DNA of 32,000 bases from Sulfolobus acidocaldarius DSM 639 (GTDB taxonomy: Archaea > Thermoproteota > Thermoprotei_A > Sulfolobales > Sulfolobaceae). Below, piece after piece: positions 24,003 to 32,000 of this stretch (position 1 is the stretch's first letter; the number at the start of each line of letters is the position of its first letter). Made by a program: the position numbers and the translations under genes. The stretch is from assembly GCF_000012285.1 (NCBI RefSeq), contig NC_007181.1, forward strand, positions 1,890,001 through 1,922,000. Direction: 5' to 3'. The notes under the pieces were generated by a model, which was given only the letters and a program-made list of their open reading frames with translations, was not told the DNA's origin and did no database searches.

Positions 24003-24761
24003 TTAACTAATCACAATTGCATATGGCACAGTAACGGAATTGGAAGCAACTAACACCACCCACATACCAGACTCAGCATGAGAGTAGATTCCACATGCTA
24101 TCCAGTAGTAACCGGCTGGAATATTAGGTAGTACTCCTACAGCAGACTGTCCTCCATATATACCATTGCCATAATAGTCTGTAGCATTAGCTCCTACATA
24201 CAGCATGATCTTACCATCAGCTGATATATTCAGGTTATTGGGCTTTACTGTATTATTTAGCACTATAAGGGCGTTATGGGGTAAAGATTGAGGGTTAGTT
24301 AATTTCACTAACACGTTCCATCCTGCAGGTACGTAAATTCTCATTTGACCATTAGAAGTGCCATTATAGTTTAGGGAACTTCCTTGTACAACTAGATAAA
24401 TGAACACTGTTTTATTACTGGGGTTATACTGTAGTTGATAGGCTCCTGGGGGTAACGTACTTGATGTAGTAGTAGACGTAGTAGTTGTTGTAGTTGATGT
24501 GGTCGTGGTGGAACTAGTGGTAGATGTACTTGATGTAGTAGTGGAAGAAGAGGACGTGGAAGATGACATTGATGAAGTACTCGTTGTTGTGGGTGTTGTA
24601 GTCGTACTTGAGCTAGTAGATGAGATACTACTCATACTACTACTGGACGATGTAGTACTACTGGTTGGTGTTCCATGGTTAAAACTCATTATGGCGAAAA
24701 CACCTGCAATTATTACGATAATTACTACGACCGCTATTATGACTATTGTCGAGGTCTTCAT
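24003..24761 (-). CDS. membrane-anchored type-1 (blue) copper protein, sulfocyanin-like
   Basis: I prefer the start at ATG 24761 (MKTSTIVIIAVVV..., 252 aa), which is preceded by GTATATAAAG about 21 nt upstream. The track ORF starts at 24815. It has a TM helix, a 72-residue Ser/Thr stalk, and then a cupredoxin domain with ligand pattern LPHNALIV ... YWIACGIYSHAESGMW (H, C-x4-H-x4-M). Confidence 0.75.
   Translation of the reverse strand: MKTSTIVIIAVVVIIVIIAGVFAIMSFNHGTPTSSTTSSSSSMSSISSTSSSTTTTPTTTSTSSMSSSTSSSSTTTSSTSTTSSTTTTSTTTTTTSTTTSSTLPPGAYQLQYNPSNKTVFIYLVVQGSSLNYNGTSNGQMRIYVPAGWNVLVKLTNPQSLPHNALIVLNNTVKPNNLNISADGKIMLYVGANATDYYGNGIYGGQSAVGVLPNIPAGYYWIACGIYSHAESGMWVVLVASNSVTVPYAIVIS
24456..24671 (-). 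repeat. low-complexity coding tract (72 consecutive residues almost exclusively Ser/Thr)
   Basis: It encodes TPTSSTTSSSSSMSSISSTSSSTTTTPTTTSTSSMSSSTSSSSTTTSSTSTTSSTTTTSTTTTTTSTTTSST. The DNA is a degenerate ACN/AGY/TCN triplet repeat. It generates a spurious D/V/E-rich ORF on the opposite strand. Confidence 0.85.
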
Positions 24762-24888
24762 AGGTTCATGAATAGGCACATTCTTTATATACTTTATCCA
24801 AAATTTTTTGTACATAAAAATTCTTAAAATAAATTCGGTTTAAGTTACTCTTTTTCATTGCATCTAGTTCTATTTCACCCAAGAGATT

Positions 24889-26239: not shown

Positions 26240-27712
26240 TTACTTACTTTGTTTTTGTAACAGCTTAACTGAAAATCTCTTCAAGTAACTTCTGACATCA
26301 TGGAAGACTATATTGTCGTGTGGACAAGCCTCTACGCAATCGCCTACACCTATACACTTAAACGACTTAAATTCTCCTTTTTTGATGAAATTTGCCCTCA
26401 TGTCCGTCAGTCCAACAGGACATGCTAACGCACAGTCTACAGTTTTACAGTTCAGACACTGTTGAGGATCCTTTACCTTCAGCTTAAAGAGACCTAAATA
26501 CCCGAAGAACTGGTTAAATGTCCCCCAAGCACATATACCCTCAGTTACACATGCGTAGTTCCCTAAAAATGGCATAAACATGAACTGGAAATACCAAATA
26601 ACATTAAAGTAAAGACTTGCATAGAATTTTGTAGCGTCATTGCCTAATACTGAAAATGAAATTACTCCCTCGTAGTTGAAATAGGACAGGACAGCAAATA
26701 CAATCAAAGACGCCCAAACTGTAATCATAACCCACTTATACCAATTAGCCATCCTAGAGGTCAGTGTCTTTCTCCCCAGCTTAGAACTCCTATTGTATTT
26801 CCTCATAGATCCTTGAAATGTGCCCTGTAACATGAATGGGGCTGTACAAGTGACAGAGCATATTTGCCTACCTCCAAATAGAAATGAGAGAACTGCTGTA
26901 ACTGCAAAGGTTCCTATTATTCCGTCAATCAAGTATGACGGTTCCACAGGACCATAAGTCCCTAAACCATTAAACCACATATATGGAATATACTGTACGC
27001 TGTTTGATATTGGGGAGAAAGTAGGTAGCCAAATGCTATAAAACGCATACGCAAACATCATTAATAGATATCTTATCTTGTTCTCCAACTTATTCAGCTC
27101 TAACACTCTGAATGAACCTAATAATCCCAACCATATGCCCATATTTATCATAAACCACGGGCTTGCTGTTATTGTAGCAAAAACAGAGAGAAAATCCATC
27201 AAGGCAAACAAGGGGTTAGTCAAAGGAAAGAAACCAAAATTACTATACAAGCCCATAGCACTACTTATCATCCCTGTTTCAAAATTCAATATTCCACTGG
27301 CAAACCAAGAAAGAGAAAACGCCTGGAAGAGAAGTAGGAAAGCCACTCTAGGGTTACTCAGGTAATTAACCTTTCTCTCGATACCGAACTTTACCCTATA
27401 CATTAAATATGTGGAGACCACTAAACCCAGAACTACAGTATAGTACATGGGTAAATTATAAGCTTGCGATAAAAATTCAAATGAATATACGACGACGAGA
27501 ACAGATAAGATGTCTATTAGCTTATATGGATAGTTTGTTAGTGACAACCTCTTATAGTATACACTCTGAAACAGAAATCCAATAAATACCATAGTTGCAA
27601 ACGTAACTGGTACAGTTAGGAAAGGAATCAGTAGTACTACCAAGATCGTAAATATATACGAATGTCTAAAAATGTAGTCAACAAAACTACTCAGGATCTT
27701 CAAATTATCCAT
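26240..27712 (-). CDS. polytopic membrane iron-sulfur protein (N-terminal multi-TM region plus NapH/polyferredoxin-like C-terminal half)
   Basis: 490-aa ORF with GGTGA 4 nt before the ATG. It has about 10 or more hydrophobic helices. Membrane-proximal Cys pairs are GRQICSVTCTAP and NYACVTEGICAWG. The C-terminal ferredoxin motifs are CLNCKTVDCALACP and CIGVGDCVEACP. Confidence 0.75.
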   Translation of the reverse strand: MDNLKILSSFVDYIFRHSYIFTILVVLLIPFLTVPVTFATMVFIGFLFQSVYYKRLSLTNYPYKLIDILSVLVVVYSFEFLSQAYNLPMYYTVVLGLVVSTYLMYRVKFGIERKVNYLSNPRVAFLLLFQAFSLSWFASGILNFETGMISSAMGLYSNFGFFPLTNPLFALMDFLSVFATITASPWFMINMGIWLGLLGSFRVLELNKLENKIRYLLMMFAYAFYSIWLPTFSPISNSVQYIPYMWFNGLGTYGPVEPSYLIDGIIGTFAVTAVLSFLFGGRQICSVTCTAPFMLQGTFQGSMRKYNRSSKLGRKTLTSRMANWYKWVMITVWASLIVFAVLSYFNYEGVISFSVLGNDATKFYASLYFNVIWYFQFMFMPFLGNYACVTEGICAWGTFNQFFGYLGLFKLKVKDPQQCLNCKTVDCALACPVGLTDMRANFIKKGEFKSFKCIGVGDCVEACPHDNIVFHDVRSYLKRFSVKLLQKQSK

Positions 27713-27746
27713 CTTATCACCAACTTGGATTAAATATCAATTATGT

Positions 27747-27759
27747 AAAAATAAAAAAA
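27747..27759 (-). terminator. oligo-T tract between the 336-aa gene and the membrane FeS gene
   Basis: The minus strand reads TTTTTTTATTTTT, about 50 nt after the stop at 27809. It may terminate or attenuate transcription before the next gene. Confidence 0.35.
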
Positions 27760-27808
27760 CAGATTATATTTACCTTTAATCACCATATTGAACGAGATGT
27801 TTGTTGTT

Positions 27809-28819
27809 TTATATTGGGTATGGGTATATTGCTGGGTCGCTAAAGTATAACACCATGTTCGAGTTCGTAGCTGACATTAATTGACTTGGTGATGTTATAC
27901 CTGGCACAACAACCTGTAAGTCAGTGTTAACAAGTGTAGTCCATATTGGGTTCTTAGCATTAGCCATTCCAACTGCACTATCATAGGTCATCATTGCGTT
28001 CTCAAGAGCCTGAATATTGTTCAAACAATTTGCTGTTGGGTTAGTTGTGTTTGATGGCACTATAGCCTGGCATTGACCTGTTATTGGGTTGGGGAATATG
28101 TTGGGATCAAATACCAACACAACAACAATATACCACGGTATACTCTGGTTTGTGGTAAATGTGACCAAGTGGTCGTGGGCTGGTGTTGGTAATACACCCT
28201 CTGGTAGGCCAAACACACCATTCTTATAACCCAAAGCCTGCTCAACAGCAGTAAAGGCTGGGGAGTAGATGTAGGTCATGTGGTCAGGACAGGCAGTCAT
28301 TGTCCCAGCAGCACCACACTGTGTAGTAATAATATAAGTCACGTTGTTATAAGTAAATGTTGGGAAGCCCTGGGAAGTTGCACCAAGTTGTGTAACACCA
28401 AATATTGAGAGACCAGCAAAGGCAGGGACTAAAACAAACACAGGGGCAGCATTCTTGGGGAATGCTGAAATATTACCAGCACCGACTTCACAACCCATTG
28501 CAACCTTGCTCTGGTTAGTCTCATTGGGGAAGAATGTTGTAGCAGGGGGAGTACACATGAACTGGGCAGTGTACTGGAATGTTATAACCTGGCCATTGTA
28601 AAAGGCACCAGAGGAGTTAACAGTAACAGGCTTAGTCAAAGTAGAAGTAACTGTAGTAGTTCCAGCTGGTACTGTTGTGGTAACAGTAGTGGCTGGACCA
28701 GTGGACTTAGTCGCATATAGTACAAAACCTACGGCAGCTATTATGATTAAGATTACAACTACTGCGGCGAATACAGTATTAGATACGGCTTTTTCTATTT
28801 TTCCCTTACCTTTTTTCAC
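27809..28819 (-). CDS. membrane-anchored extracellular Cys/His-containing protein, unknown function
   Basis: 336-aa ORF with a GTG start. It has an N-terminal TM helix (VFAAVVVILIIIAAVGFVLY), then a Thr-rich stalk, then a domain with six Cys (FMCTPP, MGCEVG, TQCGAAGTMTACPDH, GQCQAIV, ANCLNN), His motifs (ACPDHM, PAHDHL) and NxS/T sequons. Confidence 0.7.
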   Translation of the reverse strand: MKKGKGKIEKAVSNTVFAAVVVILIIIAAVGFVLYATKSTGPATTVTTTVPAGTTTVTSTLTKPVTVNSSGAFYNGQVITFQYTAQFMCTPPATTFFPNETNQSKVAMGCEVGAGNISAFPKNAAPVFVLVPAFAGLSIFGVTQLGATSQGFPTFTYNNVTYIITTQCGAAGTMTACPDHMTYIYSPAFTAVEQALGYKNGVFGLPEGVLPTPAHDHLVTFTTNQSIPWYIVVVLVFDPNIFPNPITGQCQAIVPSNTTNPTANCLNNIQALENAMMTYDSAVGMANAKNPIWTTLVNTDLQVVVPGITSPSQLMSATNSNMVLYFSDPAIYPYPI

Positions 28820-28870
28820 AATATTTCACTTCTTTCATGTATGGCTAAGGCTATTTTAAAAATATATTTA

Positions 28871-28920
28871 AAAAATTCTAACGGAAAAGGAAAAACAGGT
28901 TTGAAAAATTCTAACGGAAA
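28871..28920. repeat. two identical 17-bp direct repeats AAAAATTCTAACGGAAA, start-to-start spacing 33 bp
   Basis: The copies are at 28871-28887 and 28904-28920. Each extends to 21 nt with one mismatch (TTTR prefix). They lie in the 119-nt gap upstream of the 336-aa gene, directly next to its TATA-like element. Confidence 0.85.
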
Positions 28921-28938
28921 TATTTAAACCTGATATTA

Positions 28939-29640
28939 TCACCTTAATTCATGAGAGGATCGACCTAAGTTACTGTCCACAGTTCCGACAAATTTAGCCC
29001 TCTTTGACATTTGACTATAATCATAGTTGATCCATCTCCCTAAGTTGGCACAAACTGGTCTAAATATATCTGATCTACTGTCGCTTAATACATCATTAAT
29101 CCATTCAGGCACCCAGCTCATAATATGTGTCGTCATAAAGTTATATTCGTCCATGACTATTTTAGATATGTCCCCATTATCCTTTGATAAATTTATTTCC
29201 TCTCTGATCAAGAATGACATAAATCCTAAGATAGTAGATATATGGTCAGGCTCATGCATGAAACTTCTGCTTTTCATCACTAAACCTCTCGTAGTGTAAA
29301 ATCTAACTATATCATTGTATCTAAAGGTCGTTATTCCCTCGCCTATAAGTAAGTAATTTCTCTTACTTTCTACCGGAGTTAGAGGTTTATTTCCAAAACC
29401 GGTAAGGAATAATGTAGTGTACTCAATTAGGTAGTCCTTCTTCGATTTACTCTTGAACTTCTTCCTTATTTCGAACATATCCACGTTGGCTAACTCCTTT
29501 AATATGCCTCCTACTTTTTCAGTTACGTCATTCAACTTATCTAACATATCATTAAATTCCTTGTCCTCAATTTTATACAGAAAGATTTCAGAAAAAATAT
29601 CATATACTAAAAATCTTAGAATTCCTTGGTCACTAGACAT
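28939..29640 (-). CDS. TorD/DmsD-like redox-enzyme maturation chaperone
   Basis: 233-aa ORF with helical composition. The HEPDHISTILGFMSFL block matches the E-P-x-D-H signature of the TorD family, and YTTLFLTGFG is also present. It lies 11 nt downstream of the FeS-subunit gene. Confidence 0.7.
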   Translation of the reverse strand: MSSDQGILRFLVYDIFSEIFLYKIEDKEFNDMLDKLNDVTEKVGGILKELANVDMFEIRKKFKSKSKKDYLIEYTTLFLTGFGNKPLTPVESKRNYLLIGEGITTFRYNDIVRFYTTRGLVMKSRSFMHEPDHISTILGFMSFLIREEINLSKDNGDISKIVMDEYNFMTTHIMSWVPEWINDVLSDSRSDIFRPVCANLGRWINYDYSQMSKRAKFVGTVDSNLGRSSHELR

Positions 29641-29651
29641 AGGAGAACATC

Positions 29652-30485
29652 TTAACTACTGGAGTTATTGCTTTGAGTTGTTGTACTGTTGGTTCCCTGT
29701 GACCCTAATTGAACCACACCTGTTGCAGTCCAGACGTTGAAGTACTCTTCTTGGGATAGTAACTCTACATCCTCATTCCCTGCATAATCACTTCTCCATG
29801 GTAAGTAACCGCTGGCAGGATTTGCTCCAGTCTCAGGTCCCATCACAAATCCACCTTTATCCACAAACAGTATAGTTCCTGGATCTGTAGGATCCAATAT
29901 ATTTGCCCAGATTCTAGCCTGAACCATGCATCCGTGAATACATGCTGGAATTCTCTCCTCTGGTGGTATGGTTGTATCGTATAGTCTATCAAAACAATGG
30001 GTACACTTTTTCACAACTCCTTGAACTGGATCAAAGAACCTGTTACCATAGGGGCAGCCATAAATGCAGTATTTACAACCTATGCATTTGTTATAGTCGA
30101 CAAGGACTATACCGTCTTCAACTCTCTTGAAAGTTGCCCCCACTGGACATACTGGTACACAAGGGGCATTCATACAGTGGAAGCAGTTTATTGGTATATT
30201 ATAAACCTTAGTTTGGGGCCAATTCCCCACTTCAACGTTTAGCACTCTCAGCCAGAACATTACGTCTAGGTCTCCGTAAGGGTTAAGGTCAGGTAATGGT
30301 CCGAACATACCTGATGTGTTCCACTCTTTACATGACATCTGGCAACCTGCACAGCCAAAGCACTTATTTAAATCCGTTATTATTGCAAAGTTCTTAGATG
30401 GTTTAAACGGTAACCTATATTCAACTCCGTTTTGATACATGTCTAGGGTTATTTGTTGGGGTTGAGTACTATTTGTGGAGGACAT
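29652..30485 (-). CDS. four-cluster iron-sulfur subunit of a molybdopterin oxidoreductase (DmsB/PsrB/NrfC type)
   Basis: 277-aa ORF with four Cys groups: [37 protein letters not shown] and CTHCFDRL...ACIHGC. GGTGA lies 6 nt before the ATG, in the 11-nt gap after the catalytic-subunit stop. Confidence 0.9.
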
Positions 30486-30496
30486 ATTATTTCACC

Positions 30497-32000
30497 TCAT
30501 GGGGAAACTTGTTCTGATGCATAACCATACCTCAACTTATAATTACCAATTACGTAACCGTTTTGGGCTAAAGAGCCAGGGGATACAAAGCTCCATATTT
30601 CTGTGTTCTGCATTGAGTTAGCATTGAAACGTAGATAGGGTATATCAACTGCTTGTGCAAAGGCAGGTGTAACTGGGGAATTGCTTACACTTATTTGTCC
30701 ACCTATCTGAGAGACTATTGTGCTTATTATATCCTGGTTACTGAAGTCCTGTCCCATATAAATGAAAGTACTTGAGGACACACTGACCTTATTTGTGTTA
30801 GCCTTTCCGACTATCTTTATCCTTGAATCATGCCATGCTGTCTGTCCTGTTATAGGGTCTAAGTTTAATATGGGAAATGCATTGTCCACGTTAGGGTCTA
30901 ATGCTCCTCCTCTAGAGGGAGGCATATATACAATATTAGCCCAGTTATTCAACACACTGTACTTCACCTGAGGAGAGTCCTGAGTTTGGCTCCTGAAACC
31001 TGGTAATGCCTGAGAGGATACTACCACCCATGCAGAACCTGGTCTAGTCGCCTCGTCTAGGAACACTAATGCAGTGAGCTGAGTTGTTAGTCCCCCACTC
31101 TTGGGCTCGTTCATAGCCTGGAAAGTGACAAAATCTCCATTATTTATACCCATTGACTGAACATAGGGGTCTGCTGAACTCAGGACCATTGGGGTATAGG
31201 GTATAATAGCTGTTAACCACGGAGTAGTATAAGACCAGGAGTGATATGTTCTATCATGTCTCCTTACAAAGAATGTCAACGGATACTGGGAAAGGTCTAT
31301 ACCATCTTGAGTAATATCAGACTTCCATGTGGGAGGCGGGTAATACCCTCCAAAAGGTTTGAAGTAATCCAATATGTTATTCCTGAGAGCACTACCGTAA
31401 CTATCATTAGGCAGTGTGGATGGAACGAGGAACTTAGAGTTGTTTGTTAACTTGTAATAATAGTAGTACGCAGCGTTATAACCTGTCCATTTTCCAGCTG
31501 CAGCAAGTCTAAATCTCTGCAAATACTCAAGATATATTCTGTGAATATATGGTAACCCAACGTTACCATAACCTCCTGGCATGTAAGCTCCCCATCCTCT
31601 AAAGTAGAACATATTGACATTTCTCATGTATCTTATTGACGGTGGAAGTACGTATACTGCGCCTCCCTTACCTACCTTTACTACTCCTGGATTTATGTCA
31701 TTTAATGTCATTTTTCCGGCTGCGAAGTTATTTATTATACTTTGTAGCAGGTTCTGGAGTAATGGCTGGAACTGTACTGGTAATCTGAAGTAATCCTCAA
31801 TTCCGCCATTTCTGTTACTTGCACCTATGGTGTAAGTCGTTGCAGTAGAGAACGTTGAACCGCTAGGCACTTGAGAGGTAATTTGGCTTATGACTGTACT
31901 TTGGTCAGAGCCATTTGGAACAAATGAGGCATATAGCTTAAGCTGTTGGGGATTTGGAGTTTGCGCTTCAGCCTCATTTTTCAATATGTATTCAAAGTTT
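30497..32000 (-). CDS. molybdopterin oxidoreductase catalytic subunit, C-terminal about 500 residues (N-terminus outside window)
   Basis: The reading frame stays open through the window edge. The M at 31984 in the track is a TTG codon, and the codons upstream of it are sense. The block [23 protein letters not shown]...[26 protein letters not shown]...[18 protein letters not shown]...[18 protein letters not shown] resembles the C-terminal molybdopterin-dinucleotide-binding barrel of DMSO-reductase-family enzymes. The FeS subunit and TorD-like chaperone follow directly. Confidence 0.7.

Follow-up and report, generated by a model that had tools for sequence, protein, structure and literature searches.

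An enlarged, probably outward-facing molybdoenzyme of the SoeA lineage in Sulfolobus acidocaldarius, and a separate neighbouring pair of membrane protein genes

SoeABC of Allochromatium vinosum, Ruegeria pomeroyi and Aquifex aeolicus is a quinone-reducing sulfite dehydrogenase of the bSreA/SoeA lineage within the dimethyl sulfoxide (DMSO) reductase (MopB) family, a lineage for which a broad survey found five archaeal representatives only (PMC10100899). In the thermoacidophilic archaeon Acidianus ambivalens, SreABCDE combines a molybdopterin subunit exported by the twin-arginine (Tat) route with iron-sulfur (FeS), anchor, polyferredoxin-like and chaperone-like components (PMC8551704), and archaeal SreA groups with PsrA and PhsA, not with SoeA (PMC10100899). 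PsrABC of Thermus thermophilus (2VPW) likewise uses Tat export together with an NrfD-type anchor. Here we compare these systems with a gene cluster at one end of a 32,000-nucleotide (nt) stretch of the Sulfolobus acidocaldarius DSM 639 genome (NC_007181.1, positions 1,890,001 to 1,922,000; "the window"), which encodes a molybdopterin-type catalytic subunit (alpha) cut by the window edge, an FeS subunit (beta), a TorD-like chaperone, a protein of 336 amino acids (aa) and a membrane protein of 490 aa. Most probably, the locus holds an alpha-beta-NrfD molybdoenzyme of conventional make-up, an enlarged and outward-facing archaeal variant within the SoeA lineage, beside which lies a separate pair of genes.

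The window locus was recovered with 10 kb on either side through an exact look-up of beta (L001), where the complete alpha gene (product AAY81396) encodes 1452 aa (L001:5631-9989), mostly beyond the window edge. The sequence-only reading had proposed that the full protein be inspected for a Tat signal, an N-terminal FeS motif and the Mo-ligand residue, and all three are present. The N-terminus, MSQLKLSRRDFLK, is a twin-arginine signal, in which the S/T-R-R-x-F-L-K motif and the hydrophobic stretch after it read MSQLKLSRRDFLKISGFAGLGTAVFL, and gives weak matches to the Tat leader models PF10518 and TIGR01409; its SRRDFLK motif does not vary among homologues. It is followed by an FS0 motif, C59-x2-C62-x3-C66-x28-C95, whose four cysteines are invariant in 19 homologues and align with the FS0 site of PsrA. 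In a GGFC210S sequence, C210 is aligned to residue 173 of PsrA (2vpw_A), the cysteine that is the Mo ligand in the PsrABC structure. C210 too is invariant, and the conservation of Tat motif, FS0 cysteines and C210 extends through 12-19 homologues down to 30% identity. The protein has just five cysteines in its 1452 residues, namely the four FS0 ligands and C210. Charged residues of each class make up 6.5-9.4% of alpha and beta, about half the 11-17% found in the cytoplasmic helper proteins, a composition that fits an extracellular location in acid. About 480 aa of extra length are accounted for by the Tat leader, a C-terminal extension and no fewer than five insertions, which domain mapping puts at about 139-165, 307-540, 658-701, 860-1067 and 1127-1161.

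Full-length homology and fold place alpha in the family of enzymes carrying molybdenum or tungsten on bis-pyranopterin guanine dinucleotide (Mo/W-bisPGD), the DMSO reductase/MopB family, and within it in the lineage of bacterial proteins annotated as SoeA. This identity comes from NCBIfam, from Protein Data Bank (PDB) profiles and from an hhalign comparison of the full-length protein, not from Pfam, which also returned no match for the 500-aa fragment inside the window. NCBIfam and PDB sequence searches recognise only the first ~310 residues, with PhsA, TtrA and PsrA as best matches. Close homologues, which measure 1420-1458 aa and share 69-80% identity, come from Saccharolobus, Sulfurisphaera, Acidianus, Metallosphaera, Stygiolobus, 'Ca. 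Aramenus' and unclassified Sulfolobales. After these stand two distant relatives, a protein of 1458 aa at 58% identity and one of 1247 aa at 30%. Bacterial proteins of ~970 aa come next, among them one (P0037) whose SoeA label is a Joint Genome Institute (JGI) annotation and not an experimental assignment. When the alpha family was aligned to P0037 with hhalign, residues 53-1334 of alpha were paired with residues 13-927 (probability 100, E 1e-94, 34% identity over 907 columns), and an AHGGFCS active-site loop is common to both. P0037 has no leader and begins at the FS0 region; it carries PF00384, PF01568 and PF04879, and precomputed matches to PF00384 or PF01568 are also borne by the relatives P0031, P0034 and P0036. 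A search of 1.84 billion cluster representatives, for which the first 1047 residues of P0033, a homologue at 80% identity, served as query, retrieved just 47 proteins below E 1e-30; the Sulfolobales-type alpha forms one 50% cluster, after which come a few intermediates of 1074-1183 aa. The same partial homologue stood in for alpha in AlphaFold modelling. In a Foldseek search with its model, the top 50 matches were all Mo/W-bisPGD enzymes (E down to 7e-14), with template modelling scores that are low because the model is poor. The model suffices to confirm the family and is too poor for describing the active site or the insertions.

Based on this comparison, alpha is homologous to SoeA over essentially the whole length of the latter, the comparator being the JGI-labelled protein, and the complex shares with SoeABC a Mo-bisPGD alpha subunit with one FeS cluster, a four-cluster beta subunit and a haem-less NrfD/PsrC anchor. 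The differences lie in location and size. While SoeA has no signal peptide and faces the cytoplasm, this alpha retains its invariant twin-arginine signal and an acid-type surface composition, is about 480 aa longer, and has a TorD-like chaperone and polyferredoxin, TPR and DUF2299 proteins encoded alongside it. PsrABC provides the best match of solved structure, both for the N-terminal third of alpha (E 2e-18 with a family profile) and for beta (E 9e-31 to 2vpw_B), and the Mo-ligand cysteines align; PsrA has, however, only 765 aa, and past residue ~310 alpha matches it in two short stretches only. From SreABCDE the locus is distinguished by its distribution, as S. acidocaldarius is reported to lack sreABC (PMC5127849), whereas a giant alpha of the present type occurs beside sre in S. 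islandicus and Acidianus. This coexistence indicates that the giant alpha is a separate paralogue, SreA being set apart by the published descriptions.

Beta has 16 cysteines in four groups, matches Fer4_11 (PF13247, E 4e-18) and is 79-86% identical in other Sulfolobales loci. It bears a Ser/Thr-rich tail and no signal peptide of its own; as a four-cluster subunit without its own signal it is presumably exported together with alpha. The chaperone scores 55.7 bits against PF02613, well over the cut-off of 22.2, with weak NCBIfam matches to EbdD, to a type II chaperone and to TorD. The alpha-beta-chaperone core of the DMSO reductase family, with its four-cluster FeS subunit and TorD-like chaperone, is thus as the sequence-only reading had described it, and its closest relatives, PhsA, TtrA, PsrA and SoeA, act on sulfur compounds.

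The anchor had been reported as missing. This holds inside the window and fails for the genome, where an NrfD gene (349 aa, PF03916) lies about 5 kb upstream of alpha. Synteny was examined by comparing the genes of L001 with the six-frame open reading frames (ORFs) of ten further loci, of which L002 belongs to a second S. acidocaldarius strain and L003-L011 to other Sulfolobales, and the distant relatives are represented by L017 and L018. NrfD accompanies alpha in all eight loci from outside S. acidocaldarius that have upstream sequence and in both distant relatives, and beta and the chaperone follow alpha in 9/9 loci reaching past beta. A TPR gene is found in 10/10 related loci; where contigs reach, a cytoplasmic polyferredoxin of ~500 aa, a truncated HAD-like protein, DUF2299 and a TrmB-like regulator are found as well. 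In Metallosphaera, Stygiolobus, Acidianus and related loci (L004-L008 and L011), NrfD and TPR stand just upstream of alpha and the order continues alpha-beta-chaperone-polyferredoxin-HAD-DUF2299. In S. acidocaldarius, 'Ca. Aramenus' and one Saccharolobus metagenome-assembled genome, a polyferredoxin-HAD-DUF2299-NrfD block is instead found upstream of alpha, which in S. acidocaldarius puts it just past the window edge. In the 30% and 58% relatives NrfD, alpha, beta, chaperone and polyferredoxin share one locus, contiguously in L017, where the chaperone is also directly past beta; in L018 it is upstream on the opposite strand. Both of these loci also hold MoeA and MobA-like genes, and L018 adds TatA, TatC and a weak TusA match, so that cofactor and export machinery are genomically linked to the enzyme in the distant relatives. 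A four-cluster subunit and an anchor gene linked to alpha, as in complex iron-sulfur molybdoenzymes, are therefore both in place, and we hold this architecture with high confidence. The accessory set of DUF2299, truncated HAD-like, TPR and TrmB-like genes occupies L001:613-5427 in S. acidocaldarius, and in some loci only it includes an extra 290-aa protein without a family match. To our knowledge, none of the DUF2299, HAD-like, TPR, TrmB-like and 290-aa proteins has a described role in molybdoenzyme maturation.

Within the window, the cluster reads as follows, in minus-strand order:

30497-32000, minus strand: last 500 of the 1452 residues of the alpha subunit (about 953-1452), the in-frame translation leaving the window; contains part of the insertion at 860-1067, a domain-IV-like region and the C-terminal extension
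29652-30485, minus strand: beta FeS subunit, 277 aa (PF13247, PsrB match, 16 Cys)
28939-29640, minus strand: TorD/NarJ-type maturation chaperone, 233 aa (PF02613)
28820-28938, minus strand: A+T-rich intergenic region of 119 nt with a duplicated 30-nt unit and a TATA-like sequence, as read from the sequence
27809-28819, minus strand: 336-aa membrane-anchored, predicted extracellular protein of an uncharacterised conserved family (transmembrane helix 16-34, low charge)
27713-27808, minus strand: intergenic region of 96 nt with an oligo-T tract and then GGTGA ahead of the 490-aa gene, as read from the sequence
26240-27712, minus strand: 490-aa polytopic membrane protein with a C-terminal 4Fe-4S dicluster domain (PF13237 and PF12838)

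If the favoured explanation holds, a Tat-exported Mo/W-bisPGD alpha subunit and a co-exported four-cluster beta subunit would be held by an NrfD/PsrC-type, quinone-interacting anchor, and the TorD-like chaperone, polyferredoxin, TPR protein, HAD-like protein, DUF2299 and TrmB-like regulator would serve as helpers in the cytoplasm. On the acidic outside, the Mo centre would oxidise a sulfur compound, most likely sulfite/SO2, electrons would pass from FS0 through the four beta clusters to the NrfD subunit, and caldariellaquinone reduced there would feed the aerobic oxidases; the insertions of alpha would perhaps shield the enzyme against acid and heat. A dehydrogenase is weakly favoured on two grounds, namely that SoeA sulfite dehydrogenases are part of the nearest lineage and that obligate aerobes have retained the enzyme. 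A sulfur-compound:quinone oxidoreductase working in this direction is a possibility to which we give somewhat less than an even chance, and sulfite as its specific substrate can be put forward only tentatively. An orthologous enzyme is auto-labelled SoeAB(C) in Metallosphaera, where it is found in all members of the genus with its function unverified (PMC7325606, PMC8551704). Sulfite:acceptor oxidoreductase activity has been measured in membranes of Acidianus ambivalens (PMC8551704, PMC5461723), and the membrane sulfite:acceptor oxidoreductase of Sulfolobales has been assigned by homology to a sulfite-oxidase-like protein of ~200 aa (PMC5461723, PMC8551704). Perhaps the complex described here is the membrane quinone-linked sulfite:acceptor oxidoreductase of Sulfolobales, or acts on an unrecognised external substrate, with the insertions forming a shell; we regard this bolder proposal as rather unlikely.

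Several points weigh against the explanation favoured here. Of the curated models, Pfam PF00384 and PF01568 are absent from full-length alpha even at E 10, and no NCBIfam equivalog model is matched above its cut-off, the best (PhsA) reaching 62.8 bits against a cut-off of 694 over residues 5-140 only. The P0033 model has a mean predicted local distance difference test score (pLDDT) of 57 and is confident only at ~290-600. Substrate and electron direction of alpha are guesses from homology. Laboratory strains of S. acidocaldarius are heterotrophs. The species is also reported to have neither sreABC nor doxDA (PMC5127849), and a role in sulfur oxidation is therefore not evident there. SoeABC is oriented towards the cytoplasm, the site of sulfite formation (PMC6335251, PMC10100899), so that an outward-facing enzyme may act on something else. 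In S. acidocaldarius, the 336-aa and 490-aa genes may be transcribed together with the chaperone gene. Finally, the bacterial sulfur reductase SreA clusters with SoeA, which means that the lineage contains reductases (PMC10100899).

This last point leads to the alternative that survives best, in which alpha-beta-NrfD would be a terminal reductase passing electrons from quinol to external sulfur/polysulfide, tetrathionate, thiosulfate, arsenate or a metal when oxygen is limiting, in parallel to SreABCDE of Acidianus or PsrABC of Thermus. The best structure and family matches of the N-terminal third of alpha and of beta are indeed PsrA/PsrB, PhsA and TtrA/TtrB, the outward orientation is that of archaeal SreA, PsrA and TtrA (PMC10100899), and catalytic, FeS, anchor, polyferredoxin-like and chaperone-like components correspond to those of SreABCDE (PMC8551704). 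However, a separate sreABC already coexists with the giant alpha in S. islandicus and Acidianus (alpha homologues P0024 and P0028; PMC8551704). Moreover, at least seven Sulfolobales lineages, among them the obligate aerobe S. acidocaldarius, have kept the enzyme, with alpha 69-80% identical. That neither polysulfide nor thiosulfate is stable at the pH outside these cells is established chemistry and also speaks against the reductase. Taken together, we consider a terminal reductase unlikely.

A second alternative was raised by the sequence-only reading itself, according to which the cluster is a five-gene module of unusual composition where a NapH-like protein (490 aa) and an extracytoplasmic protein (336 aa) replace NrfD and tie alpha-beta to the membrane. 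All five genes are adjacent on the same strand in S. acidocaldarius, including strain SUSAZ (consecutive accessions), and the C-terminal half of the 490-aa protein is weakly NapH/MauN-like (E 4e-10). The replacement is contradicted by NrfD, which is encoded in the same genome and goes with alpha wherever a related locus has its upstream part sequenced, and the five-gene order is not shared: no 336-aa or 490-aa homologue was found around alpha in L003-L011, in sequence up to +/-10 kb, the alpha loci of the distant relatives lack both genes as well, and the two genes form a pair of their own elsewhere. A lack of co-conservation of the last two genes with the core is what the sequence-only reading had itself named as refuting the module. 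Even in 'Ca. Aramenus', the closest relative that has the S. acidocaldarius layout, the chaperone is followed by unrelated ORFs on the other strand. The apparent peculiarity of the cluster is thus a product of the window edge and of a species-specific gene adjacency, and the module is very improbable.

In M. tengchongensis, A. manzaensis and S. tokodaii, the 490-aa gene stands directly past the orthologue of the 336-aa gene, with identities of 69-73% for the 336-aa and 56-65% for the 490-aa protein, at these positions:

L012:6854-9362: 336-aa/490-aa pair
L013:6867-9518: 336-aa/490-aa pair
L016:5108-8524: 336-aa/490-aa pair

A divergent DUF929 gene adjoins the pair in all three loci; the one that was read, from S. 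tokodaii, encodes a transmembrane anchor and a thioredoxin-type WCPYC motif and has a VKOR gene alongside. To judge from gene order and from the gaps, the pair is an independent conserved unit with promoter-like regions of its own, adjacent to the alpha cluster only in S. acidocaldarius: it is kept apart from alpha elsewhere, and A+T-rich gaps of 119 and 96 nt set it off here, against gaps of 11 nt within alpha-beta-chaperone.

The 336-aa protein has an N-terminal transmembrane helix (16-34), a Thr-rich stalk and six cysteines, and its charged-residue content, as in alpha and beta, is well under that of the cytoplasmic accessory proteins. No Pfam family matches it, and a confident model (pLDDT 81) found neither a fold nor a sequence match in the PDB. 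Homologues at 50-77% identity occur in Sulfolobales, Marsarchaeota, Thermoprotei and Nitrososphaerota (the last three at ~50%), in which C89, C110, C168, C250, C265, H180, H215 and H217 are invariant; at the Nitrososphaerota locus examined, the homologue stands without a 490-aa partner. Among S. acidocaldarius strains (window 27809-28819; L002:11661-12774) the length of the Thr-rich stalk differs, giving proteins of 336-423 aa, and in strain GCA_001560115 the gene is split into two ORFs. The 490-aa protein carries PF13237 and PF12838 at its C-terminus, with seven cysteines in the ferredoxin domain and a membrane-proximal CxxxC pair (C285/C289). It resembles NapH/MauN in being polytopic, in the probably cytoplasmic C-terminal 4Fe-4S dicluster domain and in the CxxxC pair. 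It differs in a long extra N-terminal membrane domain, in scores far under the family cut-offs (39.6 bits against 213 for TIGR02163 and 36.8 against 234 for NF007013) and in its partners, which are the 336-aa protein and the DsbA-like DUF929 gene and not a Nap-type enzyme. Its 442 homologues, several per genome, belong to a large Sulfolobales paralogue family ('polyferredoxin'). The company of DUF929 and, in S. tokodaii, of VKOR suggests that the pair could be an extracellular thiol/disulfide or metal redox module.

A third alternative, scarcely credible, would make alpha a cofactor-less degenerate scaffold like QrcB or ActB of alternative complex III, and the complex only a quinone-interacting electron-transfer module, as might be read from the failing Pfam molybdopterin models, a weak similarity to QrcB (E 6e-7) and the large, heavily altered sequence with its insertions, but the cysteine at the Mo-ligand position and the AHGGFCS loop are invariant, a TorD-like chaperone accompanies alpha in every locus extending far enough, in the distant relatives the operon is bordered by MoeA and MobA-like genes, and no cytochrome partner is encoded.

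The sequence features that had been listed for the cluster, namely its ORFs, gap lengths, GGTGA motifs, oligo-T tract, 17-bp direct repeats and TATA-like element, are all present on the minus strand. The gaps measure, in that order, 11 nt between alpha and beta, 11 nt between beta and the chaperone, and then 119 and 96 nt. One GGTGA stands directly after the alpha stop codon and a second, past the oligo-T tract, 4 nt ahead of the start of the 490-aa gene. In the 119-nt gap, the 17-bp repeat TTTCCGTTAGAATTTTT is present in two copies (28871-28887 and 28904-28920; 0.02 expected from shuffles) as part of a 30-nt unit that itself occurs twice (28858-28920) with 87% identity and 33-nt spacing. The gap is probably a separate promoter of the 336-aa gene. 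The duplicated unit adjoins the TATA-like run and may be a promoter or regulator site that has been duplicated. A sigma-70 promoter/terminator scan, a model not applicable to archaea, stayed at background level, and an Rfam search of the window gave no match.

Two genes downstream of the cluster, at 24003-24815 on the minus strand, lies a gene whose product is sulfocyanin-like (SoxE domain) and has a long Ser/Thr stalk; its start codon is uncertain, as records annotate lengths between 134 and 270 aa. That this gene or the MFS and Nramp genes nearby might be linked to the cluster was considered and rejected, since none of them is kept beside alpha in other genera, the sole exception being one distant SoxE match in L005, a related Sulfolobales locus.

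Searches of open-access text, which did not go by locus tag, found no paper on the cluster and none on the size, Tat signal or accessory genes of the enzyme, and in this scope the description of the enzyme as experimentally uncharacterised is upheld. Annotation pipelines name alpha or the complex 'oxidoreductase', Tat-signal protein or SoeAB. The case also illustrates how an ordinary operon may seem peculiar when a window cuts through it.

The complex is strongly conserved across at least seven Sulfolobales lineages (alpha 69-80%), including S. acidocaldarius, the main genetic model of the group, and the neighbouring 336-aa/490-aa pair is a likewise uncharacterised, conserved module. The SoeA lineage otherwise consists almost wholly of bacterial enzymes that face the cytoplasm. 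For an exported member with large insertions, the questions are which external substrate it serves and how its molybdopterin and FeS cofactors withstand hot acid. If the proposed role of the insertions were true, a shell of ~480 aa would let a Mo-bisPGD enzyme with five FeS clusters function extracellularly at pH 2-3 and about 80 C. So far, the assignment of sulfite oxidation in Sulfolobales is by homology only, and the good genetics of S. acidocaldarius make a direct test feasible.

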